Position numbers and translations under genes: made by a program. The notes under the pieces were generated by a model, which saw nothing but the letters and a program-made list of their open reading frames with translations, did not search any database and was not told where the DNA came from. This document shows, piece after piece, positions 2,212 to 19,616 of a stretch of 64,000 nt of DNA. Source of the DNA: Candidatus Latescibacterota bacterium. Lineage in GTDB: Bacteria > Latescibacterota > UBA2968. The stretch is taken from assembly GCA_965205975.1 (NCBI GenBank), contig OZ242195.1:3072001-3136000 (forward strand). The letters are read 5' to 3'. The stretch's first letter is position 1. Each line of letters starts with the position of its first letter.

Positions 2212-2421
2212 CTAGCCGCACGTAATAGTCTCCTCGTCATTATAGAAAATGTGAAGGCAGCTAGTATCGCACGTCACACTTCCCTCACATTGAATACAAT
2301 CAAAGTAATGTGCTCCGTAAGAGTCTGTAAACCAATAATCAAGGCGGCTTCCACTGCCCTCATATCCATAGATACGCGGAGAAGACAGCCGAGACTGCAC
2401 AGGCTTTGTCAAAGTTTTCAT
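2212..2421 (-). CDS. Putative RiPP precursor peptide 1 (69 aa; leader MKTLTKPV...IYGY, 5-Cys core)
   Basis: Strong SD AAGGAGGTGA; leader shared with 6481-6678 while the core is unrelated. Confidence 0.8.
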   Translation of the reverse strand: MKTLTKPVQSRLSSPRIYGYEGSGSRLDYWFTDSYGAHYFDCIQCEGSVTCDTSCLHIFYNDEETITCG

Positions 2422-6480: not shown

Positions 6481-6678
6481 TTATCCCCAAGACCGAGCAC
6501 CAGGAGGAAAGCACTGCAAAACGGAACGCCAAACGAACTGGCACTCATACAAATCAACAGGGTTTCCATCTACAACGCCATCTCCAACGTCTACCCAGGC
6601 AAGTCCAACTCCAAACTCGTATCCATATATAGGCGACGCCATATTCTGAATCTTCACTGGTTTGGTCAATGTTTTCAT
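6481..6678 (-). CDS. Putative RiPP precursor peptide 2 (65 aa; leader MKTLTKPV...IYGY, 2-Cys core)
   Basis: SD AAGGAGGTGA; shared leader with 2212-2421. Confidence 0.8.
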   Translation of the reverse strand: MKTLTKPVKIQNMASPIYGYEFGVGLAWVDVGDGVVDGNPVDLYECQFVWRSVLQCFPPGARSWG

Positions 6679-6766: not shown

Positions 6767-7489
6767 TCAATAAATAAATGTAGATAAAGGATCTATATCA
6801 AAATCTTTGGCAATAATTTGAGAATAGGGCACTCCTTTAAGATGATCGTTCAGAAGTGGTTTTTGCAATCGCAAATGTCTTTGAATCACACCAAAAAAGA
6901 GGACTGTATTTTGAGGGCGATCTTTTGAGGATAGATGACAATGCGTTATGATATTCTTTTCATTGACAACAAAGATAGCCGGGGTGCGATGAGTAAGCAT
7001 TTCATTTTGGAATAGCATGTTCTCCGTATCCGGAAGCAACTCGTAATGGAGGTTAAAACTCCTTTTGTATCTTTTTAACACGCCCGCAGGAGCATTGGCA
7101 AAAGCATAAATTGGAAAGCGTTTTGAGGGATCCTGATTTTGGTACACATGCTCCAGTAACTTTATCTGGGTGATTAGACATGGCTGACAGTCTTGTGGGC
7201 TGAAGACCAGAACCAGTCCTTTTCCTGTTTCGGAAAAGTCTGTTGAAATCCAGTCGCCATTTATGTTCTTCAATTCCAACTTCGGAAATTCCTGTCCTTG
7301 ATAATTGGATGCGTAGGTAGAGGCATTTATATGCTCTTTGTAATCGGCATTCTCTATTCGGAGTTCTCTGATTGTTTTCCAATGACCAGAGTTCGTATTT
7401 CTCAATTTCCATATCCCGAATAACGCAACCAGAAGAAGAACAGATAACAGGATATTCAAAATCAGCGACATTTTCCGAATTTCTTGCAT
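6767..7489 (-). CDS. Membrane-anchored redoxin/AhpC-TSA (thioredoxin-fold) protein
   Basis: N-terminal TM helix; FPKLELKNING, VFSPQDCQPC (CxxC), TPAIFVVN cis-Pro motif. Confidence 0.75.
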   Translation of the reverse strand: MQEIRKMSLILNILLSVLLLVALFGIWKLRNTNSGHWKTIRELRIENADYKEHINASTYASNYQGQEFPKLELKNINGDWISTDFSETGKGLVLVFSPQDCQPCLITQIKLLEHVYQNQDPSKRFPIYAFANAPAGVLKRYKRSFNLHYELLPDTENMLFQNEMLTHRTPAIFVVNEKNIITHCHLSSKDRPQNTVLFFGVIQRHLRLQKPLLNDHLKGVPYSQIIAKDFDIDPLSTFIY

Positions 7490-7632: not shown

Positions 7633-9534
7633 TCAAAAAAAATCAACAACAACATCGGCCATCTTTTTACGTCCTTCGGCACTAATTATCTCAGTCGCCG
7701 GAATGCGATGTGTTGATTCCAAGTTCAATATCGTTTGACAGATTTCCTCTCTACAAAGCGGTTGACTCACGACTGTGTTGACCGTGTGATTTACAATTTT
7801 TTTCTTATCGCTAAAAACGAGCAGAATAACTTTTCCTTTTCCCAGGCTCTCTAAAACTCGGATATTTTCCTGTATAAATTCAGGCTCGTCGATAGAATTA
7901 ACGAGCAAGACATAAGCATCGGGAACGGTTCCAAAAAGCAAGATCAATGAGGGCAAAGTGTAACTCTGAGATTTTTCGTAAAAGTTATGAGGTATGATAC
8001 CGGACTGGCCACCAACGACGATGATATCCGGGTCTGATTGTTCGATACCGACCATAGCGGAATTTAGAAGTGGAATGTGCAAATCCATGGGAATCTGGAT
8101 GCTCTGATGCCCGTCATATCCATTTGGAAATGTAAAATCGAAATCAAATAATGCAGATTGGTGTTCTGTACCCAATTGACCAACTTTATAGCCAATTTTC
8201 TGTAATTGTTTTCTGAGTGCCAATTGAGCAGTGAACTTTCCTTGCTGCGGTCCTGTTCCAAACACGCCCAAGACAGGTTTCTGGCTTCTGCTTCTCCAAT
8301 CATAAGTTTTGGTCAAAGCCTCATAAGTTGCAAAATCTATGGTCGGTGCTGCATAATGCAGATGTTTTTCTTCAAATGCTTTGCTTATGCTTTCGTATTG
8401 CTTATTTGCAATGGGGCTCAGACTATACACATTCTTGTTATGCTTCAATGCCAATTCCAAAGATTCTTGTAACACATCGCGTTTCTTAATCCGGCTAATT
8501 TCATCCAAATAGCCCAGAACGAGCGTATCGCCGTATTGCAGACAATCTTCCAAATTTTGTTGTATGATCAAATTAGATTCGGACCCCCCAATAACCTCCC
8601 CACAATCTTTGCCTATGGTTCTTTTTCCAATAACATCAACTACCCTTGTAATTCTAAACGGCAATAACTCCCGAAACCGCACCAACCCATGCATTTCTTT
8701 GTTATAGGGGAAAATAACAGCCTCGTCTATCCAGCTTGGCGCGTTTGCCTTATTGAGATCGCGGATAGAAACATCTGAGCGAGATCTGGGCATCCCGCTC
8801 ATCGCATAAGTGCTACTATCTACCAGGTCGGGACATTGACTTAAGGAATGTCTCTGCAAAATTTCTGTCAGATCGTTGAACGAGATACAACCATATTTCT
8901 CTATGATCAGAGCAATCAAGCCGGAAATATGCGGAGCCGCAAAGCTCGATCCCCCAATAAATATCTGTTTGCCTTCCAGCCAATTTAGGCGTTGACGATC
9001 ACCCCGTGCGACAAACTGTATTTTTTCGTGCGGGTCATAAAAGTAATCAAACTTGCCATTAACTTTTCCTCCTGCTACGCCAAAGACATTGGGAAAAGAC
9101 GCGGGAATACTCGGTTGTCCATCATTTGATGTCGCAGCAACAATGAACGTCTGGTGTTTGTGTGCAAAATCACAGGCCTCCTTCAAAACATCGCTATCTC
9201 TCTCATCCAGAGTACCTAAACTCAAATTGACAATGTGACAGTGATGTTCAACACACCAGTAAATCGCCTTGCACAAAATGTCCATTTTCGTTATCAGTTC
9301 TGACTTAAAAATTTTGACAGGCAAAAATTCAGTATTTGGAGCTTTGGAGTGGATGACGCCAATACAGGCTGTGCCGTGGCCTATCATATCTTGGTAATTT
9401 GAATCTTGATCGCCATTACAGAAACTGGTACCATTCAACACATGCACATTTTTTTTACCCGTATTAAAACCGCTATCAATCACGCCTACCCGGGTACCTG
9501 TACCTGTCAACCCAGAAAAAAAATGCTCCATCAA
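7633..9534 (-). CDS. S8 (subtilase) serine peptidase fused to a DUF1611/TIGR04066-like P-loop peptide-maturation domain
   Basis: Triad motifs VIDSG, GHGTAC, GSSFAAPH; C-terminal part with IFPYNKE, GKDCGE, VFGTGPQQGKFTAQLALR, PDIIVVG. Confidence 0.8.
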   Translation of the reverse strand: MMEHFFSGLTGTGTRVGVIDSGFNTGKKNVHVLNGTSFCNGDQDSNYQDMIGHGTACIGVIHSKAPNTEFLPVKIFKSELITKMDILCKAIYWCVEHHCHIVNLSLGTLDERDSDVLKEACDFAHKHQTFIVAATSNDGQPSIPASFPNVFGVAGGKVNGKFDYFYDPHEKIQFVARGDRQRLNWLEGKQIFIGGSSFAAPHISGLIALIIEKYGCISFNDLTEILQRHSLSQCPDLVDSSTYAMSGMPRSRSDVSIRDLNKANAPSWIDEAVIFPYNKEMHGLVRFRELLPFRITRVVDVIGKRTIGKDCGEVIGGSESNLIIQQNLEDCLQYGDTLVLGYLDEISRIKKRDVLQESLELALKHNKNVYSLSPIANKQYESISKAFEEKHLHYAAPTIDFATYEALTKTYDWRSRSQKPVLGVFGTGPQQGKFTAQLALRKQLQKIGYKVGQLGTEHQSALFDFDFTFPNGYDGHQSIQIPMDLHIPLLNSAMVGIEQSDPDIIVVGGQSGIIPHNFYEKSQSYTLPSLILLFGTVPDAYVLLVNSIDEPEFIQENIRVLESLGKGKVILLVFSDKKKIVNHTVNTVVSQPLCREEICQTILNLESTHRIPATEIISAEGRKKMADVVVDFF

Positions 9535-9568
9535 AAACCTCTCGCAGTGTTTAGTTCATAACGTTGAT

Positions 9569-9862
9569 CTATTCGGGAATAAGTGAATGTGTATCAGTGG
9601 CTAATTTCTCATATATATACTTCGCGACCGAATGTGTCGAAGTTAGCATTTCTTCTGTGAGTTCTTCGTCCTCTACGATCACATCAAATGCATCCTCTAA
9701 GCCTGTCACCAGGGCCAGGGTAGAAATAGAGTCGAGTATAGAATTCAAAGGAAGATTGTCCCAATCTATATCATCGGATGTGACTTCACGGTCTAATGCC
9801 TTCAGAACCAAATCTTGAATCTGATTCTCAATCTCAGATATTGTTATTGTATTTTTTGTCAT
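9569..9862 (-). CDS. Acyl carrier protein
   Basis: Acidic 97 aa; LDSISTLALVTGLEDAFDV phosphopantetheine-site motif. Confidence 0.8.
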   Translation of the reverse strand: MTKNTITISEIENQIQDLVLKALDREVTSDDIDWDNLPLNSILDSISTLALVTGLEDAFDVIVEDEELTEEMLTSTHSVAKYIYEKLATDTHSLIPE

Positions 9863-9889
9863 AAAATTTTATATCCGATTGCACGATGG

Positions 9890-9918
9890 TTGACAATCTA
9901 CCCCTCAAAAGATACCTT
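9890..9918 (+). promoter_or_regulatory. Sigma70-type promoter TTGACA-N17-TACCTT for the antisense structured RNA
   Basis: TTGACA 9890-9895, 17-bp spacer, TACCTT 9913-9918; the repeat begins about 7 nt later. Confidence 0.55.
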
Positions 9919-9924
9919 ACTATC

Positions 9925-10008
9925 AAGCTCACATTCCCAAATGCTTGAGCTTTGAACTGCAGTCTGCCGCCGACACTCGACTTGCCAGGGTCTGTCGGCG
10001 GCTTTTTT
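9925..10008 (+). ncRNA. Putative small structured RNA, copy 2 (about 84 nt, ends in intrinsic terminator)
   Basis: Hairpin AAGCTCA-CATT..AATG-CT-TGAGCTT, then GCCGCCGACA...TGTCGGCGGC-TTTTTT; duplicated at 2502-2613. Confidence 0.5.
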
Positions 10009-10009
10009 A

Positions 10010-11377
10010 TCAATATGATGTGTTCTTTAACGCTTCTTCAGCCTTTGCCAAGTTTATATTCCGAACACATCCTGAACGGCATTCCCAGCCCACACCTTCA
10101 TAGTCAGCAATAGCAGCGATTTGCTCTCGCAAAGGATCGTTGCATAAATCAAGAACGCGCTTGCCCTTCAAGATGGGTAAAATCGGTATATGAAACGAGG
10201 AAATGGGATGTGCGATCAACAGTAGGGAACATTCACATAGCGACTTGAGGGATTTTGTCAATTGTCCCTGCCACATCTTTCGGGCATCACTTTGAATATA
10301 AGTCGGCTCCACGTCCAAGAGGCCCAACTCCACTGACGGGTCATATGCGATCACATGATACCCTTCTGAGATGAGCATGTTTCCGAGTTTTACGAATGGA
10401 CTATCCCTCAAGTCGCCTGTATTGGGCTTAAAACTCAAACCCAACATACCCAGTGTTCCTCGAACGGCAAGCGACCTTACCCTCCTTACCGTGGACCTGA
10501 TATGAAGATCATTACTGGCGATGATATTGGTCAGCAGAGGTAATTCGGGTTCTTGTCGTCCGTTAGATAGCCGCAGGAGTGCTGTAAGATCCTTCGGGAG
10601 ACAGGATCCTCCGAATGCGAATCCCGGCCTCATGTAGGCTTTTGACATATTGAGCTTGTTGTCTGAGCACACGACCTCCATTACTCTATTGCTGTCTATC
10701 CCGAGATATCTGCAAATATTCGATATCTCATTCGTGAAAGTAACCTTCATAGCATGAAAAGCATTGCATACATACTTCACCATTTCAGCGATCTCGTATT
10801 CGGTAATGTACACCGGCCCAGCTTCACCGTAAATATCTAACACGCGCTGGTAATAACCAGTCTTTGGAGCACCAATGATCCGAATCGGAGGATCATTCAG
10901 GTCCTCCATTGCGCTTCCCTCTCTCAAGAACTCCGGATAATACCAGACATTGCCAAAATTCCCGAAGGCTCCAGAGGCGATATTACGCGTCGTACCGGGC
11001 GGAACAGTGCTGCGCAAAACTATGTCAAACATGCCTCTTTTCTTTTTCACTATCTCTACCAGTGACGTTACGGCCTGATAAAGAAAACACAGATTTGGTA
11101 CTCCGTCTTTCTCACCTCGCGGCGTACCTACACAGATAATCGCTACACTCGCATCCTCGACAGCTTTGAAGTAGTCAGTCGAAAGCTGGAGCCTCCCACT
11201 TCTAAGTGCTGAACTTAGCAGGTCGCTTACGCGGGGTTCTGGTTCAGGTTCACCGGCAAAAAGATGGTGGATTCTCTCCTGGGAGACATCCAGACCTGTG
11301 ACGATATGACCTCGTTCAAGCAAGTAGGCAATATTCACAATGCCGACATGGCCCAAACCAACTACACAAATTTTCAT
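10010..11377 (-). CDS. UDP-glucose/GDP-mannose 6-dehydrogenase family protein (AlgD-like)
   Basis: GLGHVG Rossmann motif, ICVGTP, PEFLREG, PGFAFGGSCLPKD, GLSFKPNTGDLRDSP. Confidence 0.9.
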   Translation of the reverse strand: MKICVVGLGHVGIVNIAYLLERGHIVTGLDVSQERIHHLFAGEPEPEPRVSDLLSSALRSGRLQLSTDYFKAVEDASVAIICVGTPRGEKDGVPNLCFLYQAVTSLVEIVKKKRGMFDIVLRSTVPPGTTRNIASGAFGNFGNVWYYPEFLREGSAMEDLNDPPIRIIGAPKTGYYQRVLDIYGEAGPVYITEYEIAEMVKYVCNAFHAMKVTFTNEISNICRYLGIDSNRVMEVVCSDNKLNMSKAYMRPGFAFGGSCLPKDLTALLRLSNGRQEPELPLLTNIIASNDLHIRSTVRRVRSLAVRGTLGMLGLSFKPNTGDLRDSPFVKLGNMLISEGYHVIAYDPSVELGLLDVEPTYIQSDARKMWQGQLTKSLKSLCECSLLLIAHPISSFHIPILPILKGKRVLDLCNDPLREQIAAIADYEGVGWECRSGCVRNINLAKAEEALKNTSY

Positions 11378-11516
11378 CCTGCACCCTTACCTTCCATATG
11401 TCTCACTGACCCTAATCCTGATTGATTTCCAATATTTTTAATAGCATCAAATCTATATTTACCAGATTGAATTACCATTTACCGGGCAACCCAATATCAT
11501 CTGATATCGAACAGAA

Positions 11517-12518
11517 CTACTTGGTGAATTTCTGTTGTTCAATACAAGAGACTATGACCTCCGTTGTGTCTTCCCACTTTTTATTTTCAGGTTTGACTCG
11601 CGGAACTCTATTGCTAAGATTTGCCAATATTTCTTTAGTCACCTTACCAAGATCAGGGATTATTAATTGTCCACTCTCGACTAATTCTCGGTTTATGCAC
11701 ATTTCCCTTCTTCCAAGATAGATAGTAGGTACTCCTAAGAGAGCCCCTTCCCTTGCAACAGTATCTCCAGTAGTTACCACCAGGGCTGAATAGTAAATCA
11801 GGGAATGGATACTGGGACAAGGTTCAACAACCTTTCGGAAATTGGGGTGTTCAAACTCGAGATTTATTCCCCGTTCAAGGGAGGCTATGATGCTCATTCC
11901 AGTATTTAAAATCGCATTCGTCGCTTGCATAACTTCTTCCTGACCCAGGCGTCGATAGTTCATGCTAATAGGTGCAACATACCTGACGAAAACATACTCT
12001 CCTGGCTGAACGCCATAATCACCTAAAATCTTCGGTTGCGGGACGAATCGGTTCAAGTAAGCCAACTCTTTGAACCCGTTGTATTGAATGATGTTTCTGC
12101 CTGCCACTCCGAGTGCTTCAGGTAAGACAAGTTGATGAGCGAATAAAAGACATGGCCAAAAATTTAGCTTGTATTCGAAGTCGTCATAAAAAATCACAGA
12201 CCGTACGCGACAAAACCGCGAAACTATGCCCGAATAGAATCCACAACTCGCCAAAACATCTGTCTCCATTTCGCATACTATCTTCTTGAGATCAACGACC
12301 CTTTCCCATACCCCAAACATCTTTCTAACACCAGTTCTATGAGCACCCATTACACGAAAGGAACAAGGGAGGTCTGACTCCGCTATGGCAACAAGGTTAC
12401 CTCTTTGCCTGACAACAGCCGACACATCGTGTCTCGCCTTCAACGATTTGATGGCTGAATTAAAAAAATTGAGATGTGCGACGTGAAGAATGTCAAAGAG
12501 AATCTTCAAAGGTAGCAT
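11517..12518 (-). CDS. DUF354-family GT-B glycosyltransferase-like protein
   Basis: ILFDILHVAHLNFF, YNGFKELAYL, GDTVAREGALLGVPTIY motifs. Confidence 0.7.
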   Translation of the reverse strand: MLPLKILFDILHVAHLNFFNSAIKSLKARHDVSAVVRQRGNLVAIAESDLPCSFRVMGAHRTGVRKMFGVWERVVDLKKIVCEMETDVLASCGFYSGIVSRFCRVRSVIFYDDFEYKLNFWPCLLFAHQLVLPEALGVAGRNIIQYNGFKELAYLNRFVPQPKILGDYGVQPGEYVFVRYVAPISMNYRRLGQEEVMQATNAILNTGMSIIASLERGINLEFEHPNFRKVVEPCPSIHSLIYYSALVVTTGDTVAREGALLGVPTIYLGRREMCINRELVESGQLIIPDLGKVTKEILANLSNRVPRVKPENKKWEDTTEVIVSCIEQQKFTK

Positions 12519-12558: not shown

Positions 12559-12792
12559 TTAATAGCCGTCATGTGCAAATACATACACATACCAAGAGGC
12601 CTGTTCTGGTCCTACCCCATTAGGGGGAGCTTCACAACCCCAAATTTTAGCGAGTCGAGTCACTTCTTGCTGGGCTTCCCTCTTAGAATTATAATGCGCC
12701 ACAGTCTTCCAGTTTCTGAAGGAGCGGAACCTGGAACGCCAATATCGCTTTCGCTCGTCGGGATCCATCGTAATTCCAACTCGACAGGCCAT
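12559..12792 (-). CDS. Small hypothetical protein (possible GIY-YIG-like fragment)
   Basis: 77 aa, RVGITMDPDER motif, begins 17 nt after the rSAM stop. Confidence 0.55.
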   Translation of the reverse strand: MACRVGITMDPDERKRYWRSRFRSFRNWKTVAHYNSKREAQQEVTRLAKIWGCEAPPNGVGPEQASWYVYVFAHDGY

Positions 12793-12809: not shown

Positions 12810-14240
12810 TTACGAGGTTATTTCCAGATTATATCGTCGCTGCAACAAAGACGCATCCTCTTCTGCAATCTCCATACACATCTCCATCGCCAGTTCATAG
12901 CGATAACGTGTCTGTTCACAAGCAACAGGGTTGGGGTACATCGGGTCCCCCGTCGTCGTCCGAGCATCCCAAAGACATCCACCACCACACAGATTGCGCG
13001 CCCAGCATGTCTTGCACTCTGGGCGATTATTCACATTGAACTGCGCGTCAAAATGCTGCTGCTTTTCGCGATCAATACCCACAAACACATCACCCATCTT
13101 AAACTCGGGTGCATCGGCCAGACTCGAGCAAAAATAAATTGATCCATCTGCTGCAATAGCCAGATACTGCTTACCACCCAGGCATCCATGACAGGATTTT
13201 GCGCGCGTCAGCAATTTCTGAATCCGCGGATCAAACTCTTCACTCTCTTCACCATTCAGAATAGCTTTGAGCGCACGGCGGCTCCGCCTGTAAATTTGTT
13301 GTTTCAAAACAGGTATGTGTTCTTCCCGAATGGCATAAGGCGCATCGGGGGAGACAACCGCCGGACCGATGAGCGCGTTATCAGTACCCAATGAGCGCAA
13401 ATCATCGGCAATCTCATCCTCATCCATATCATACGCTGTCATAATAGCTTGCAGGTACACGCGCTCAGGTGCCTCAGCAGTCAATTTCTGTACATTCTTT
13501 GCCACGACATCATAAGTACCAGAACCATTGTGAAACTTGCGAATACGGTCCTGTGTCTTACGTCCGCCATCCAGGCTGACTTTAATTTGAAACTTTTCAT
13601 CGATCAAGAACTGCTTCATCTCGTCGGTCAACAGCGTGCCATTGGTCACAATGCCAAAACCAACCTGCACTCCCAGGCACGCGCCCAGAGATTTGGCAAA
13701 TGGGACAAGCTCTCTCATCAATGGAAAATTCAGAAGCGGCTCCCCGCCAAAAAAATCAATCTGGCACCGCCCCAAAGCCTGAGCTTCGGTGATGATCCAG
13801 CGTATCGATTGCTCGGCAACATCGGGTTGCATCAGCATCGCCTTACCGCCATAATCCCCGCCATGTGCAAAGCAATAAGCACACTGAATATTGCATGTAT
13901 GCGAAACGTGCAGCGACACCTGCAAACGATCTGTCTGTGATACCCCACAAGCTGCCACCCCTTCTGTCGTCGGCACCTGGGACACCAGAAGCAATGCACC
14001 ATCCGCAATCAACCCCACCTGTGCCAATTCCTCAATAGCCTCGGCAATTTCCTCTGCCTCGTATTGATCGGCCAACGTCTGGACAACCTGTGAAGCAGAT
14101 AAGCCCTCGCAACATTCTAAAATTGATTTGAAAAGGGGATCCAGTTCAAAAAACAGACCTGTCTCAATCTGATAGACAATCGGCTGATTTTGCTCTTCAG
14201 TTTGAAAAAGATGTATGTCGCATTTCTGAATGCATAGCAT
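12810..14240 (-). CDS. Radical SAM/SPASM peptide maturase with N-terminal RRE (CteB/QhpD-like)
   Basis: CNIQCAYC motif, FFGGEPLLN, SPASM cysteines CHGC...C and CKTC...CGGGC...C; PqqD-like N-terminus; SD GAGGAG favours ATG at 14240 over GTG at 14249. Confidence 0.9.
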   Translation of the reverse strand: MLCIQKCDIHLFQTEEQNQPIVYQIETGLFFELDPLFKSILECCEGLSASQVVQTLADQYEAEEIAEAIEELAQVGLIADGALLLVSQVPTTEGVAACGVSQTDRLQVSLHVSHTCNIQCAYCFAHGGDYGGKAMLMQPDVAEQSIRWIITEAQALGRCQIDFFGGEPLLNFPLMRELVPFAKSLGACLGVQVGFGIVTNGTLLTDEMKQFLIDEKFQIKVSLDGGRKTQDRIRKFHNGSGTYDVVAKNVQKLTAEAPERVYLQAIMTAYDMDEDEIADDLRSLGTDNALIGPAVVSPDAPYAIREEHIPVLKQQIYRRSRRALKAILNGEESEEFDPRIQKLLTRAKSCHGCLGGKQYLAIAADGSIYFCSSLADAPEFKMGDVFVGIDREKQQHFDAQFNVNNRPECKTCWARNLCGGGCLWDARTTTGDPMYPNPVACEQTRYRYELAMEMCMEIAEEDASLLQRRYNLEITS

Positions 14241-14268
14241 GCCAGGCACTCCTCAGAACAGATACAAT

Positions 14269-14445
14269 TTACTCAGGCTGATCAAAATTGTCCCAATCGT
14301 CATCATCAGGGAACGGCATGGGGGGAACAGTAATAGGATAAGGGGTACAGCCAACTTCAAAACTATCCGTCGTCTGATATGTGCTAATACCACCCTCTTT
14401 ATCCATTGTTCCATTGATCAAGATCAACTTGCGTCGAGTCGTCAT
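14269..14445 (-). CDS. Unannotated 58-aa putative rSAM precursor peptide MTTRRKLILINGTMDKEGGISTYQTTDSFEVGCTPYPITVPPMPFPDDDDWDNFDQPE
   Basis: Manual translation; SD AAGGAGG 14451-14457; first gene after the sigma54 promoter and directly upstream of the rSAM gene. Confidence 0.8.
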   Translation of the reverse strand: MTTRRKLILINGTMDKEGGISTYQTTDSFEVGCTPYPITVPPMPFPDDDDWDNFDQPE

Positions 14446-14503
14446 ATTATCCTCCTTAAATACAAAAATCTAAATGTCGTCATTGTCTTCGCTCCGTTTA
14501 TAT

Positions 14504-14520
14504 CGCAAGATCCGTGCCTA
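14504..14520 (-). promoter_or_regulatory. Sigma54 (-24/-12) promoter TAGGCACGGATCTTGCG
   Basis: GG-N10-GC with GGCACG and TTGC consensus; sigma54 activator gene adjacent. Confidence 0.8.
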
Positions 14521-14535
14521 ATAATGCATTAGCAT

Positions 14536-14567
14536 AAAAAAAAGCACTTAAAAACTCTCAAGTGCTT
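14536..14567 (-). terminator. Intrinsic terminator after the activator gene
   Basis: AAGCACTT-N10-AAGTGCTT followed by a T-run on the minus strand. Confidence 0.55.
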
Positions 14568-14630
14568 GAAAAAACAAGGAAATAAAATTTAAAAATTATT
14601 TGTACTGTAAATGCGGCATCCAGATATATG

Positions 14631-14758: not shown

Positions 14759-17700
14759 CTATCTCAACCCCAGACGATTCATCTTTCTATACAAGCTGGC
14801 GCGCACCAACCCCAGTTCTTCGGCCGTACGCTTAATATTACCCTCGTATTTTTCGAGCGCATCCATAATCAACCGTTTCTCATACTCCTGCATACTATCT
14901 TTTAAATGTCCCTGGTATTCGACAGAGACACCCGACATCGCGTGGCCGACAGCTTCCGAAAACAAATCGGGCGTAATTGCACCATCTTCTTCTACCAATG
15001 CAACCGCACGCCGAATCTCATTCTCCAACTCGCGCACATTACCCGGCCAGTTGTAATTTGTAAGTGCCCTGATTGCACCTACTGTCAGCCCGCCAACCGA
15101 CTTGTTTGCCTCTTCCTTTGCCCGAATGAGCAAATGTTCGGCCAATAACGGCACATCTTCCATGCGTTCTCGTAAAGGCGGCATATCGATCTGAATCACG
15201 TGCAACCGATAATACAAATCTTCGCGGAAAGAGCCTTTTTCTACTTCTTTTTTTAAGTCTCGATTGGTCGCTGCAATAATGCGTACATCTACTGCGCGAT
15301 CCTCTGTTTCTCCCACACGCCTAATCTCTCCTTCTTGCAACACCCGCAACAAACTCCTTTGCAATGGTGGCGGGGCATCGCCGATTTCATCTAAAAAGAC
15401 CGTACCCCCATTAGCCGTCTCAAAAACCCCCTTATGATCTTCAGTCGCGCCAGTAAACGCCCCTTTTTTATGACCAAACAACTCACTCTGCAACAGCTCT
15501 GGTGAAAGGGCAGCACAATTTTGCGACAAAAAACGCTGGTCTTTACGTGTACTATTGTAGTGTATGGAACGCGCAGCTAATTCTTTGCCAGTACCTGTTT
15601 TGCCTTGCACAAGCACGGGAATATCGCTTTTTGCCGCACGTTCTATAAGCCGGTAGATCGCCTGCATCGCATCACTTTGCCCAAACAGATCGCCAAGCTG
15701 GTGCTGTCTTTCGACCTCTTGCTGCAAATATCGCGCTTTCTCTTCCAATTGTTCGTACATCCTCGCATTGACCAGTGCTACACCCACCAGATTCGCAAAT
15801 GCTTGTAAAAACGTCTGGTCTGCTTCAGAAAATGCGTTGCCTATGCCGCGATGATCCACATATAGGGCACCCATTACACCTTCGCTAACATGAAATAGAG
15901 GCACACACAATACAGACCGAATGTTGTAGTCTATCACACTCTGATATTGATTTAGCCTATCGTCTGTTTGTGCATCAAGGCTCAAAACGGGTTCATTTGT
16001 TTCAATAACCCGACGAATAATACCCCCACTCAATTCTTCTGCATCATTCGATTCTAAATTGTGGTGGCGCACCACATCAACTACAAAGTCTTTTGGAGTC
16101 TCATTTTTAATCGCAACAATCACCCGCTCTGCTGAATAGACAGCCAACAAATTGCCCAAAGTTCCATCCAATAGCACCTTGACATCGTGCTCTGTTGTTA
16201 ATTCCTGGCTCATATCATAGAGCAAATTCCAACGATCAACAGACAACGCACCAACTGGAACCTCAGAACTGGATACGGTATCCTCACCGCGATGGAGCGT
16301 TGGAGCGGCATCCCTGCCGCGACCATCTTCGTCGCGAGATAATTGATTTAATAACACCTGTGTTTTCTCCAAAAAATAGGACATTTCCATTTCCTCAAAC
16401 GCCTGTTTTGCCGCTTCGAGATGTGCTTGCGCTTTTGGCATATCATCGCGCTGGAGATAAAACTCCCCAGCCATCAGCAATGCCCGCGCCCAGTGGTCGC
16501 CTTTGGATTCTCTGCGACATTCAATTGCCTGCTCAAAAGCCTCTTCAGCCTCAGCAATTCGCCCTGCCTGAGCAAAAGCCGCACCAATACCGCAATATAC
16601 CAGGGGCAATATGCCTGTGTACATACCCGATATTTGTTGCGTACCTTCTTTGGCTTTTTCAGCCCATTCAAGTGCTGTTTCACCATTTCCCATTCTCGCA
16701 GCAGCCGTTGCCGCAATTGCATAAGCGCGATAGATATAATCTTTTCGCGGTGTTTCCAAAAATCGCTCTGATGAAATCTCGGCATATTCCAATGCCTCGG
16801 CAAAATCATCGCGTTCCAGAGCCAATTCCCCAAGCCATAGGAAATTTGCTGCTTCCCAATACACACCCCCTCGCTTCTGCCACTCACCAATGACCTCATA
16901 ACAAACGGCTTCAGCACCATTGAAATCCCCCAAATAAAAATAAATTCTTTGAAGTGCATTGAGTGCCCAAACGCGATGGTGCTCTAAACCAAGTTGTCTA
17001 AAGATCTTTACAACAGTTTCTAAATAGCCCTTAGCTGTCTCAAATCGAAATTCCACTAATGCGGCCTGGCCTTCTCGTCCTTGTATAAAAGCCTGGTTTT
17101 GTGGATCTCCCGACTCACGGAGTTTCTCTATTTCCCGACGCATATACGCAATTGATTCTTCGTGCCGACCAGACACATCACACAAATAAGACAAGCTGCT
17201 TAACGCCTGAATTTCGCCATCGAAATCACCGAGTTCACGATAAAGCTGCAATGCCTCCAGCATATATCCTTCTGCAATTTCACCATGTTGAAGTACGCTG
17301 TGAATCTCACCCTGGTCGTTTAAAATACGCGCTTTCAAATCTTTCCGATCAGCGGGCAATAATGCATTTGCTTCGTCTAAAAGTTTTAGTGCGCAATTGT
17401 ATTCACTACAATTGCGAAACACATCTGCATAATCGCACAAAAAATCGATAGCATCTGCAGGTAATTCAAAAACGTCATCCGCTGTCCAGTCCCTCACTGC
17501 CTCGAACCGTCTCAATGCCTGGCGATACGCTTGTACCTCCAATGCTTTTTTACCCGCCAGACACATATATTTCACAGCCTTATCTCGTTCTTCTGCCGCC
17601 GCAAAATGATCCGCCAATTCTTCCGTCAATTCTTCTGCATCACCCGTCTCTTCCAGAGCATTGCCAATTTCTCGATGCAACAGACGCCGCCGCACATCTT

Positions 17701-18841
17701 GCATGCGGTCATAAATTGCACGCCGACACAAATCCTGTGAAAATCGATAGCGGTCTTCATCCTCTCCACAAGCAGCCAAAAGCCCTTCCGCAATCAAGTC
17801 ATCCAGCATATCCAGCAATTCTAACTCATCACCGCGCCAAACTGCAGCCAATAATTCGAAAGAAAAATCACTTAAAAAAACACAGGCGTATTCCAGCACC
17901 CGCTGTTGCATAGCAGGCAGGGTTGCTATGCGCCTGTACAAAACCTCTGAAAAGTCATTGGATAATAATGTTTCGGGAAACTCTCCCCACTGCCAATCGC
18001 CAGACACATCTTGCCGAACCACATCGGCATGCACCAGTGTCCTTATCGCCTCCACGACAAACAGGGGTTGTCCGCCTGTTTCTCTGAACAGGGTTTGCAA
18101 TGCATCCGACGGTATGGATCGCTCCCCTAACATCGACGCCGCTAAATATCCCACCTCTTCTTGTTGTAGATACTCCAACTGCATCTGGGTCGCTTCAGCA
18201 AATTCATTACTATGTATAAAATTCTCAATTTCCTCTGAAAGCGGTTCCAGATTAGACCATCGGCAAGTCAGACATAACAAAAACGGGCACGGTTCTGGAT
18301 CGCGCAACACATACTGCAAAAATTCCAGAGTCAATTCATCAAGCCATTGAATATCTTCCAAACACAACACAATGGGCTGTTTCTGTCGCAGACTTTTTAG
18401 TAACTGCAACCAGCGCTCCATAACAGAAAACTTGTCGGTCTCTAATGAATCGGGCAACTCTGCCATCAAATCCGTCGTCCCTTGAAAAGCCCTGATCAAC
18501 GCACCGTATATTTGTCCGCCCTCTTCCTGCCCTGCGCCCTTCAAACATAGAAAATCGTGGATCAGAGCGTCGCCCAACAGTTCTTCGGCCAGTCTCGATT
18601 TACCTACTCCCGCCTCACCCGAGATCAAAACCACGCGCTGCTTGCCAGCCTGTACATCCTGTAACATCGCACTCAGTATCTTCATTTCAGATTCCCGCCC
18701 GACAAATTGTGGGCGCACAACTTTTCTATGCACATCGCGCTGCTCGTCCTCCAGCAGCACAAGCTCCGATGGTAAGGCACGTACCAGTTCCTCTGCCGAC
18801 TGATAACGATCAACACGCTCCTTTGCCAGCAACTTCAGCAC
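14759..18841 (-). CDS. Multidomain sigma54-dependent activator (P-loop ATPase, TPR, GAF, AAA+ GAFTGA, Fis HTH); C-terminal part of a frameshifted kinase fusion
   Basis: GEAGVGKS, GKTGTGKE, SELFGHKKGAFTGA, WPGNVRELEN, terminal HTH. Confidence 0.9.
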   Translation of the reverse strand: MLKLLAKERVDRYQSAEELVRALPSELVLLEDEQRDVHRKVVRPQFVGRESEMKILSAMLQDVQAGKQRVVLISGEAGVGKSRLAEELLGDALIHDFLCLKGAGQEEGGQIYGALIRAFQGTTDLMAELPDSLETDKFSVMERWLQLLKSLRQKQPIVLCLEDIQWLDELTLEFLQYVLRDPEPCPFLLCLTCRWSNLEPLSEEIENFIHSNEFAEATQMQLEYLQQEEVGYLAASMLGERSIPSDALQTLFRETGGQPLFVVEAIRTLVHADVVRQDVSGDWQWGEFPETLLSNDFSEVLYRRIATLPAMQQRVLEYACVFLSDFSFELLAAVWRGDELELLDMLDDLIAEGLLAACGEDEDRYRFSQDLCRRAIYDRMQDVRRRLLHREIGNALEETGDAEELTEELADHFAAAEERDKAVKYMCLAGKKALEVQAYRQALRRFEAVRDWTADDVFELPADAIDFLCDYADVFRNCSEYNCALKLLDEANALLPADRKDLKARILNDQGEIHSVLQHGEIAEGYMLEALQLYRELGDFDGEIQALSSLSYLCDVSGRHEESIAYMRREIEKLRESGDPQNQAFIQGREGQAALVEFRFETAKGYLETVVKIFRQLGLEHHRVWALNALQRIYFYLGDFNGAEAVCYEVIGEWQKRGGVYWEAANFLWLGELALERDDFAEALEYAEISSERFLETPRKDYIYRAYAIAATAAARMGNGETALEWAEKAKEGTQQISGMYTGILPLVYCGIGAAFAQAGRIAEAEEAFEQAIECRRESKGDHWARALLMAGEFYLQRDDMPKAQAHLEAAKQAFEEMEMSYFLEKTQVLLNQLSRDEDGRGRDAAPTLHRGEDTVSSSEVPVGALSVDRWNLLYDMSQELTTEHDVKVLLDGTLGNLLAVYSAERVIVAIKNETPKDFVVDVVRHHNLESNDAEELSGGIIRRVIETNEPVLSLDAQTDDRLNQYQSVIDYNIRSVLCVPLFHVSEGVMGALYVDHRGIGNAFSEADQTFLQAFANLVGVALVNARMYEQLEEKARYLQQEVERQHQLGDLFGQSDAMQAIYRLIERAAKSDIPVLVQGKTGTGKELAARSIHYNSTRKDQRFLSQNCAALSPELLQSELFGHKKGAFTGATEDHKGVFETANGGTVFLDEIGDAPPPLQRSLLRVLQEGEIRRVGETEDRAVDVRIIAATNRDLKKEVEKGSFREDLYYRLHVIQIDMPPLRERMEDVPLLAEHLLIRAKEEANKSVGGLTVGAIRALTNYNWPGNVRELENEIRRAVALVEEDGAITPDLFSEAVGHAMSGVSVEYQGHLKDSMQEYEKRLIMDALEKYEGNIKRTAEELGLVRASLYRKMNRLGLR

Positions 18842-19616
18842 AATTTGTTGCGTCTCTTCGGGAACAGCGATATTGAACTTCGCCTATTGGTGGAGGTGAC
18901 TCTCGAATATGCTTCATAATAACAGATATGGGATTTTGTCCAGAAAAGGGCGATGCGTCCGTGAGGACTTCGTATAAAATCACACCCAATGAGTACAAAT
19001 CTGACCGATGATCCACCCACAACCCCTTACCCTGCTCTGGCGACATATATTCTGCCGTACCAATCGTTGCACCCGTCTGAGTAATGGAAGCACTGTGCAA
19101 ATGTCTGAATTTCGCCAATCCCAGGTCCAGAATCGTGGTTTCAATCCCCTCTTTTGTCTCCAAAACCATAATATTGGATGGCTTGAGATCGCGATGCACT
19201 GCACCCTGAGCGTGGACATAAGCCAATCCATCGGCAATTTGTTGTATCAAGTCAAAAAAGTGAGACGTCCGGAATTGCTCTAACAGTACACGATCGGCAA
19301 TAATTTTTTCCAATGTCTTTCCGGGCAAATATTCCATTGTAAAATAGGGACGGTCTTTGGCAAAGCCCCAGGTGTATGTGCGAACCAGACGCGGGTGCTG
19401 GAATCGGTTCAACACCTGAAACTCTCTGTGAAAACGACGGCGCACAGCCTGCTCATCCATCATTTCATTCAAAATTTTGAGCGCGCAATCCCGATCTTGC
19501 TCCAGGTCCAAAACCCGATACACTTCACCCATGCCCCCGGCTCCCAGGTGCGCCTGGATCTGGTATCTTTTGTCGAGAATTGTGCCAATTTCGAACATAC
19601 GCGTTATTCTTTGCAA
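18810..19616 (-). CDS. Hanks-type Ser/Thr protein kinase domain, separated from the activator by a 1-nt frameshift near 18876
   Basis: GAGGMGEVY, HRDLKPSN, DLGLA, YMSPEQ, DLYSLG; the kinase C-lobe end (LLAKERVDRYQSA) lies in the other frame. Confidence 0.85.
   Translation of the reverse strand: MQRITRMFEIGTILDKRYQIQAHLGAGGMGEVYRVLDLEQDRDCALKILNEMMDEQAVRRRFHREFQVLNRFQHPRLVRTYTWGFAKDRPYFTMEYLPGKTLEKIIADRVLLEQFRTSHFFDLIQQIADGLAYVHAQGAVHRDLKPSNIMVLETKEGIETTILDLGLAKFRHLHSASITQTGATIGTAEYMSPEQGKGLWVDHRSDLYSLGVILYEVLTDASPFSGQNPISVIMKHIRESPPPIGEVQYRCSRRDATNCAEVAGKGAC

Follow-up and report, generated by a model that had tools for sequence, protein, structure and literature searches.

The SCIFF system CteA-CteB (5WGG; TIGR03974) consists of a small peptide gene directly before that of an enzyme with an RRE, a radical SAM and a SPASM domain. 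One thioether per precursor is reported for CteA (PMC8326336), and a table of the same review lists a signalling role for SCIFFs (citing Chen 2020). QhpC-QhpD and PapA-PapB make RRE-guided thioethers from a cysteine to a carbon atom. The function of ranthipeptide-type products is mostly unknown. In the agr (AgrD/AgrC) and RRNPP systems a variable peptide core is matched to a variable patch of the sensor, and the peptide operon stands under its own regulator. Streptococcal radical SAM peptides have been linked to shp/rgg (PMC11851443).

We analysed a window of 64 kb from a Candidatus Latescibacterota bacterium (the whole stretch of 64,000 nucleotides, to which positions refer unless a locus is named). 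It holds a gene for a 58-residue precursor peptide which, as in the SCIFF system, lies directly before that of an RRE-radical SAM-SPASM enzyme; such an enzyme beside a cysteine-containing precursor is a class feature of ranthipeptides. The enzyme has seven SPASM cysteines in the same pattern as CteB and identical residues at proximity positions 1, 2 and 4. Unlike the SCIFF precursor with its six cysteines in ~45 residues, the peptide has one. The enzyme also differs from the SCIFF maturases (~30% identity, 266 bits against a cut-off of 425, a separate clade with support 1.0) and carries Ser-Ser in place of the His-Gln of CteB, plus an eighth cysteine. In further contrast to SCIFFs the system is multicopy and has a hypervariable loop and a dedicated sigma-54 activator.

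QhpD and PapB belong to the same enzyme neighbourhood (255 and 225 bits). Unlike at QhpC-QhpD, no dehydrogenase subunits were seen on reading through the genes listed for 42 cassettes. As in triceptides (YhhB, FxsB and DynA types), aromatic-X-X triplets can be read in the peptide, but they are not conserved here, and the enzyme reaches 74-93 bits against cut-offs of 370-450. With agr and RRNPP the locus shares a variable peptide core, a variable patch in the candidate sensor and a peptide operon with a dedicated regulator. In contrast to these systems and to shp/rgg, it is the product of the radical SAM enzyme that would serve as the signal; the sensor, unlike those of agr and RRNPP, would be a cytoplasmic kinase-STAND-TPR-GAF-sigma-54 activator of 1600 residues, and no exporter or protease is conserved. 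A giant kinase-AAA protein tied to peptide clusters is also found in the TOMM kinase/cyclase fusion (TIGR03903), whose model matches both activator ORFs of the window with 165 and 130 bits (cut-off 706); the output here is a GAF plus sigma-54 activator, not a cyclase.

The locus represents an undescribed family of one-cysteine precursors that has a radical SAM clade and a sigma-54 activator to itself; it works like a ranthipeptide system and belongs to no named family. It adds an undescribed precursor family and enzyme clade from an uncultured phylum, with a candidate receptor encoded next door. The literature searched, which left most subscription papers outside, contained no description of the cassette. 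Ranthipeptide and RRE clusters called by antiSMASH are reported from sponge-associated Latescibacterota with unnamed precursors (PMC12993501); they may include the present family.

The peptide gene and its conservation

The gene occupies positions 14269-14445 on the minus strand, which the initial annotation had left unstated; the plus-strand translation of the same interval is unrelated to the peptide. A ribosome-binding site, AAGGAGG (14451-14457, minus strand), is located 5 nt before the ATG, and a sigma-54-type -24/-12 promoter box, GGCAC-N5-TTGC (14504-14519, minus strand), 59 nt before it. The initial annotation had described an ORF with a leader, a single cysteine (Cys33), a proline-rich stretch, an acidic tail and this ribosome-binding site behind a sigma-54 promoter, and each of these elements is found as described. 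The stop codon is separated by 20 nt from the start of the radical SAM gene. Only four ORFs of 30-90 codons with a comparable ribosome-binding site exist in the 64-kb window. In all 33 close cassettes a sigma-54 box lies 43-65 nt before the precursor ATG; in seven distant cassettes (110 nt examined) it is clear in one, weak in one and not found in five. Counts of sigma-70 promoters and terminators equalled those in shuffled sequences. An AT-rich hairpin with a T run at 14542-14567 (minus strand), just upstream of the sigma-54 box and alike in many cassettes, could be the end of the activator transcript.

The same genome encodes two paralogs of the peptide, which are 78% and 68% identical to it; both are followed by an enzyme with 91% identity to that of the window. 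A protein search for homologs matched 28 of 28 database candidates at E <= 1e-14, and protein search and loci together gave a close set of 59 distinct precursors from 61 rows. With these paralogs, close homologs and the conserved cassette, the expectation that the gene is conserved beside homologous radical SAM enzymes is borne out. For the peptide as a whole, dN/dS is 0.36 (pooled pairwise over the 33 close cassettes, which as kin are not independent). Resolved by part over the same cassettes, it is 0.19 for the leader, 0.10 for the proline motif (aa 41-46), 0.22 for the tail and 1.12 for the loop (aa 34-40). Read contigs of four public runs, which stem from at most two samples of one study and are possibly the source of the window itself, cover 14290-14573 with zero differing letters. 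At the level of sequence, the 58-residue peptide gene is confirmed as real and conserved; its translation is predicted.

The leader strand (aa 1-12; 14410-14445, minus strand as for all peptide segments) contains the motif L-x-L-[IV]-N-G in 59 of 59 close homologs and is the predicted RRE binder. Cys33 (14347-14349), the predicted sulfur donor, is invariant in three alignments. It is followed by a six-residue hypervariable loop (aa 34-39; 14329-14346) of fixed length, with 47 different loops in 59 precursors, and by the conserved motif [VI]-P-x-x-P-F-P (aa 40-46; 14308-14328; 57/59), the candidate acceptor region. The Cys-to-Pro spacing is constant in 58 of the 59 close precursors. An acidic tail (aa 47-58; 14272-14307) is confined to the close clade. 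Among the 33 close cassettes, 26 precursors have one cysteine and seven have two. The initial annotation, accurate on the features of the peptide, had overlooked that the residues after the cysteine form a hypervariable loop of fixed length, which covaries with the activator encoded upstream.

Peptides of the sister clade, whose enzymes are 50-55% identical, are homologous by profile comparison (probability 87, E 4e-6). They keep I-N-[GA], the cysteine and the proline run and have no acidic tail; several contain W-P-R/D. More distant peptides (enzymes 43-45% identical) retain the leader Asn, one Gly and the Cys, and nothing else. Across all clades (15 rows) only N11, G18 and C33 are invariant besides the start Met, which leaves C33 as the sole core residue kept throughout.

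The statement that the precursor fits no family holds for Pfam and NCBIfam, with 0 matches in each. The ESM Atlas gave no usable match, and a solved-structure search with the precursor profile gave one chance-level match (E 0.03). In a search of 50%-identity representatives, 13 of the 14 matches, as listed, belong to the same peptide family, several of them frameshifted-looking; the search also gave a repeat protein of 1522 aa. A likeness of the leader to those of SCIFF/CteA had been noted initially. Against a profile of SCIFF precursors built from 11 neighbouring loci the comparison was not significant (probability 0.3, E 0.23), and homology to the SCIFF leader was rejected. In L044 and L061 about 300 nt are inserted between a shortened precursor and the enzyme.

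The radical SAM enzyme and the predicted ring

The enzyme (479 aa; 12810-14249, minus strand) contains PqqD (RRE), Radical_SAM and SPASM domains, all above the Pfam cut-offs. It scores 266.5 bits with the SCIFF maturase model TIGR03974 (cut-off 425), 254.7 bits with QhpD TIGR03906 (cut-off 453), 246 bits with a nif11-type family, far below its cut-off, and 224.5 bits with PapB NF047865 (cut-off 340). With the cyclophane synthases DynA, YhhB and FxsB it reaches 93, 88 and 74 bits against cut-offs of 450, 445 and 370, respectively. A tree of 49 sequences places the 25 family members in a single clade (support 1.0), apart from the SCIFF-type enzymes and beside the maturases of the SCIFF, QhpD and PapB kind. 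The closest relatives (87-92% identical) come from records labelled Candidatus Latescibacterota, plus one labelled Poribacteria and one labelled uncultured bacterium. CteB is the best solved relative (5WGG, E 1.7e-61), and anSME follows with E 6e-16.

The RRE, the CxxxCxxC motif and the seven SPASM cysteines are invariant in 48 of 48 enzyme homologs, and the cysteine spacing follows the pattern of CteB. An eighth SPASM cysteine (C353), which could fill the open site of cluster I, occurs in 25 of 48 homologs including the enzyme of the window and is absent in 23. The residues reported in catalytic proximity in CteB are F112, F152, T186, S210, H363 and Q364 (PMC10288494); the corresponding positions here are F127, F167, V201 (Thr in 30/48), S225, S375 and S376. 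Three positions are thus identical, one is variable (V/T/A) and two are different. At the fifth and sixth positions the homologs have Ser in 47/48 and Ser or Ala in 46/48, respectively, and the enzymes of the distant homologs keep the Ser-Ser site as well. Some neighbouring enzymes have a His-Arg pair, which we take to be the carboxylate binder of QhpD and PapB; it is missing here. As judged from its sequence, the enzyme is a member of no named family and works like a thioether-forming maturase in which the two residues beside cluster I are small. Its active site differs from those of all CteB-type relatives examined, which possibly means a new acceptor chemistry. The 47 natural loop variants would be handled by ~90%-identical enzymes, so that a loop-tolerant macrocyclase is likely.

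At L021:10897-12378 the radical SAM/SPASM gene is followed by another, divergent one with 23-30% identity to it. Such a second gene is also found in the distant cassettes L024, L025, L077, L078, L100, L123 and L124, and L123 apparently has three radical SAM/SPASM genes.

Based on these comparisons we propose the following course of the modification. The L-x-L-[IV]-N-G strand would dock on the RRE of the enzyme, and the peptide is very probably its substrate; leader-RRE binding has a precedent in CteA-CteB (PMC6231123). In the next step Cys33 would bind auxiliary cluster I, where CteB and PapB hold the substrate cysteine (PMC6231123, PMC12373016), and the 5'-deoxyadenosyl radical would probably lead to one C-S bond with a loss of 2 Da. 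The product would be a single thioether ring from Cys33 to a carbon atom further along the chain, displaying the six-residue variable loop. We place the probability that a conserved cassette, a peptide that is the substrate of the enzyme and a C-S bond at Cys33 hold together at about 60%. That the single cysteine alone among the core residues persists in every clade favours thioether chemistry.

None of the candidate acceptor residues is kept in all clades. The constant distance from Cys to Pro, with a freely varying loop in between, suggests that the ring is closed at Val40 or within the proline motif, and a residue of this region instead of an acidic one may be the acceptor, an assignment with the odds somewhat against it. 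The initial annotation had made the peptide the substrate of the adjacent CteB/QhpD-like enzyme, with a thioether to Asp, Glu or Thr or with W-x-N or F-x-Q cross-links. The conserved linkage of the genes supports the predicted substrate, and the conserved cysteine a thioether; the acceptors named there are doubtful and the cross-links unsupported. Unlike in QhpC and PapA, a Cys-x(n)-Asp/Glu motif is lacking within nine residues after the cysteine in 38 of 59 close homologs, and 22 of 59 have none of D, E, T or N there; the first acid of the tail follows at +14 or +15. VGCT, taken as a QhpC-like trait, occurs in 2/59.

A classical ranthipeptide link from Cys33 would lead either upstream to Glu30, as in NxxC peptides, or to one of the tail aspartates D47-D50. 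Glu or Lys is present at -3 or -4 from the cysteine in 58 of 59 precursors (Glu in 53), which makes this position the main alternative to Val40 and the proline motif, and an acidic run follows the proline motif in 58/59. Asp/Glu acceptors are reported for QhpD and PapB (PMC13692751, PMC12373016), the enzymes with which ours scores 255 and 225 bits. However, the spacing of the Glu varies between -3 and -4 and Lys substitutes for it, the first tail acid lies beyond the i+1 to i+7 range reported for PapB (PMC12373016), and distant homologs have no tail, yet their enzymes keep the Ser-Ser site. The His-Arg pair, moreover, is missing from the enzyme. We regard an acidic link as unlikely.

That no ring is formed and Cys33 is instead oxidised to formylglycine or a thioaldehyde, as by the anaerobic sulfatase maturase, would agree with the eighth SPASM cysteine in 25 of 48 homologs, with fully ligated clusters as reported for anSME (PMC6231123) and with a proline that stands two residues after the cysteine in 37 of 55 six-residue loops, a tally from which a filter had dropped three precursors. 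The 23 homologs without the eighth cysteine argue against it, as does the much greater distance of anSME compared with CteB (E 6e-16 vs 2e-61); in SkfB, the extra cysteine is described as sitting away from its cluster (PMC6231123). Oxidation without ring closure appears quite improbable.

A cyclophane of the triceptide type, formed at W-x-N, at F-x-Q or at the conserved F-P-[DNA], is very improbable. Aromatic-X-X motifs are the sites of triceptide formation (PMC11499958), F45-P46 is invariant within the close clade, and W-P-R/D is seen in several sister-clade peptides. F-P-[DNA], though, is kept in the close clade only, WDN occurs in 13/59 close homologs and a tail Trp in 50/59, and tail F-x-Q is found in 40/59 and absent from the distant homologs. 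The enzyme reaches 74-93 bits with the cyclophane-synthase models and 266 with that of the SCIFF maturase, and a cyclophane would leave the invariant cysteine unexplained. The triceptide and QhpC readings fail because of the low counts of WDN and VGCT and because the distant homologs have no acidic tail.

The activator and its covariation with the loop

The order of the cassette is activator, peptide, enzyme, and the activator lies upstream of the peptide in 40 of 42 loci; of the two others, one has only 309 nt upstream and one has insertion sequences. Together with the sigma-54 box these three genes make up a single conserved cassette, present in 2-3 copies per genome, and in the source genome each of three activators precedes a peptide and an enzyme. 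The activator (kinase-STAND-TPR-GAF-sigma-54; 14759-19616, minus strand) has ~1605 aa in the paralogs and is split in the window into two ORFs (18810-19616 and 14759-18841) between the kinase and STAND parts. The split results from one extra base at 18875, which is likely an assembly error because read contigs of three runs from one sample lack it (depths 125/149, 135/135 and 85/85); a fourth run has no cover there, and the runs may be the source of the window. The nearest solved chains to the TPR region in a profile search are designed TPRs and the LGN/Pins TPR domains.

Activator and enzyme were found in the same 15 of 20 genomes of the genus and both missed in the same five. Across the phylum, 26 of 168 genomes have the enzyme at E <= 1e-70, including one with a match of 30%. 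Of 24 loci from a metagenome scan, only two were informative additions. In a genus of the sister family, 10 of 15 genomes have a full-length activator and no enzyme match. Two activators that stand without peptide and enzyme (L130:1697-10154 and L129:1522-8143) occur in the source genus itself; they are 79-82% identical, have a sigma-54 box and drive either GWxTD/TPR genes accompanied by a BlaI-like repressor or dockerin/leucine-rich-repeat genes. The TPR region of peptide-less activators is also variable (0.75 vs 0.84 overall, five rows). Activators with internal deletions, frameshifts or truncations are found in L049, L060, L053, L064, L068, L133 and L146; in L049 and L060 most of the TPR region is gone, with peptide and enzyme kept.

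Identity among the activators is lowest in the TPR region near aa 800-880 (66%, compared with 74-89% elsewhere; 24 rows). The most variable segment, aa ~800-900, corresponds approximately to 16880-17182 (minus strand). Its similarity correlates with that of the peptide loop (r 0.34, p 0.0005) over 27 of the 33 close cassettes; six were dropped, three with an activator cut by a contig end, two with a deleted TPR and one with a loop one residue shorter. The correlation was unchanged after control for the enzyme, the rest of the activator, the locus and the genome. Over the same cassettes the loop showed r 0.01 with the enzyme and -0.04 to 0.08 with the AAA, GAF, sigma-54 and HTH domains; for the neighbouring TPR segment 900-1110 r was 0.17. 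In a scan of 22 activator segments only three overlapping ones, spanning 741-940, passed a family-wise test (best r 0.35, p 0.0001).

At one orthologous locus (12-13 cassettes), r was 0.61-0.65 when three flanking genes were controlled for one at a time. The HTH domain follows the locus (r 0.54). Within one genome the enzymes are more alike (r 0.21) and the TPR segments are not (r -0.10). Two further cassettes were added later: the TPR of L132 is closest (96%) to that of a cassette whose loop is the same, and L128 fits the pattern in part. Without six cassettes with PY[ST]F loops r falls to 0.23 (p 0.02), and after removal of one further pair to 0.04 (p 0.37); outside the main locus it is 0.19 (p 0.08). 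The loop and one TPR segment of the activator change together as a statistical pattern that is carried by two cassette groups. In a nearest-neighbour test on 25 cassettes, 18 agreed for the TPR segment, 15 for the arm, 13 for sigma-54, 12 for HTH and 11 for GAF; because the signal is also present in these other parts, shared descent explains part of the covariation.

Tracking of the loop by the TPR segment, absent for the enzyme, suggests signal-receptor pairs. The ring would then act as a ligand by which the activator of the same cassette, and with it the varied downstream genes, is tuned; we consider this role possible at odds clearly below even. The complete construction, in which a Ser-Ser enzyme closes a one-cysteine ring on a non-acidic residue and the loop is the ligand of the TPR domain, is doubtful as a whole. 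Within it, specificity groups of loop and TPR would separate the 2-3 paralogous circuits of a cell or neighbouring strains, and peptide-less activators would be listeners. If true, bacterial signalling would gain a new kind of circuit, in which a STAND activator of sigma-54 senses a peptide. Loop/TPR pairs that occur naturally, both cognate and non-cognate, allow a direct test. A complex prediction that combined 450 aa of the TPR region with residues 27-58 of the peptide scored 0.02; the thioether cannot be modelled in it, and the value speaks neither for nor against an interaction.

The same thioether chemistry could serve a peptide that is output only, an effector against competitors or towards a host, with the TPR region sensing an outside cue; the covariation would then come from shared descent of a few cassette lineages or from a common outside target. 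We give this alternative a nearly even chance. In L129, L130 and L134, GWxTD/TPR or leucine-rich-repeat genes are driven by peptide-less activators of the same family, the TPR segment of L130, which has no neighbouring peptide, shares 90% identity with that of paralog 2, and the sister-genus activators without an enzyme point the same way. So does the loss of the covariation once 8 of 27 cassettes are removed. The pair in the window itself is a counter-example to matched pairs, its loop being like that of paralog 2 and its TPR segment grouping with PxG/xPG-type cassettes. Against an output-only peptide stand the 2.4 kb between TPR segment and loop, which carry no family-wise signal, and the tree of a flanking gene, in which the PY[ST]F cassettes are dispersed, unlike in the TPR tree, where they group together. 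Nor does a conserved export or tailoring gene accompany the cassette at its most common locus.

Genes behind the cassette

The genes downstream of the enzyme are of several types: subtilase-DUF1611/carrier-protein peptide clusters (as in the window), peptidase-ABC bacteriocin-like clusters, glycosyltransferases, or housekeeping genes only. Among the downstream genes of 42 loci no family recurs in every cassette, and there is no protease or exporter common to all. The commonest downstream gene (15/42 loci, ~300 aa, no Pfam or NCBIfam match), for example L007:3090-3998 and in 14 other loci, looks methyltransferase-like by eye and is a possible tailoring enzyme.

In the window, a 77-aa ORF of no known family (12559-12792, minus strand) directly follows the enzyme, and an 88%-identical copy follows that of paralog 2. 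The region 7633-12518 (minus strand) encodes a DUF354 glycosyltransferase-like protein, a nucleotide-sugar dehydrogenase, an acyl carrier protein and a subtilase-DUF1611 fusion. A thioredoxin-like gene at 6767-7489 follows this subtilase-DUF1611 block, and the L061 cassette has the same block with a different loop. Behind paralog 2 (C1:2800000-2812000) we observed small double-glycine-type peptides, glycosyltransferases, a peptidase-ABC transporter and an HlyD-like gene. Two small peptide genes of the window (6481-6678 and 2212-2421, minus strand) share the leader MKTLTKPV...IYGYE and have unrelated, cysteine-containing cores; each lies before genes for a six-bladed propeller lipoprotein and a MacB/FtsX permease. 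Similar leaders are present in L022/L073 and, within the genome, at two further loci of the subtilase-DUF1611/carrier-protein kind.
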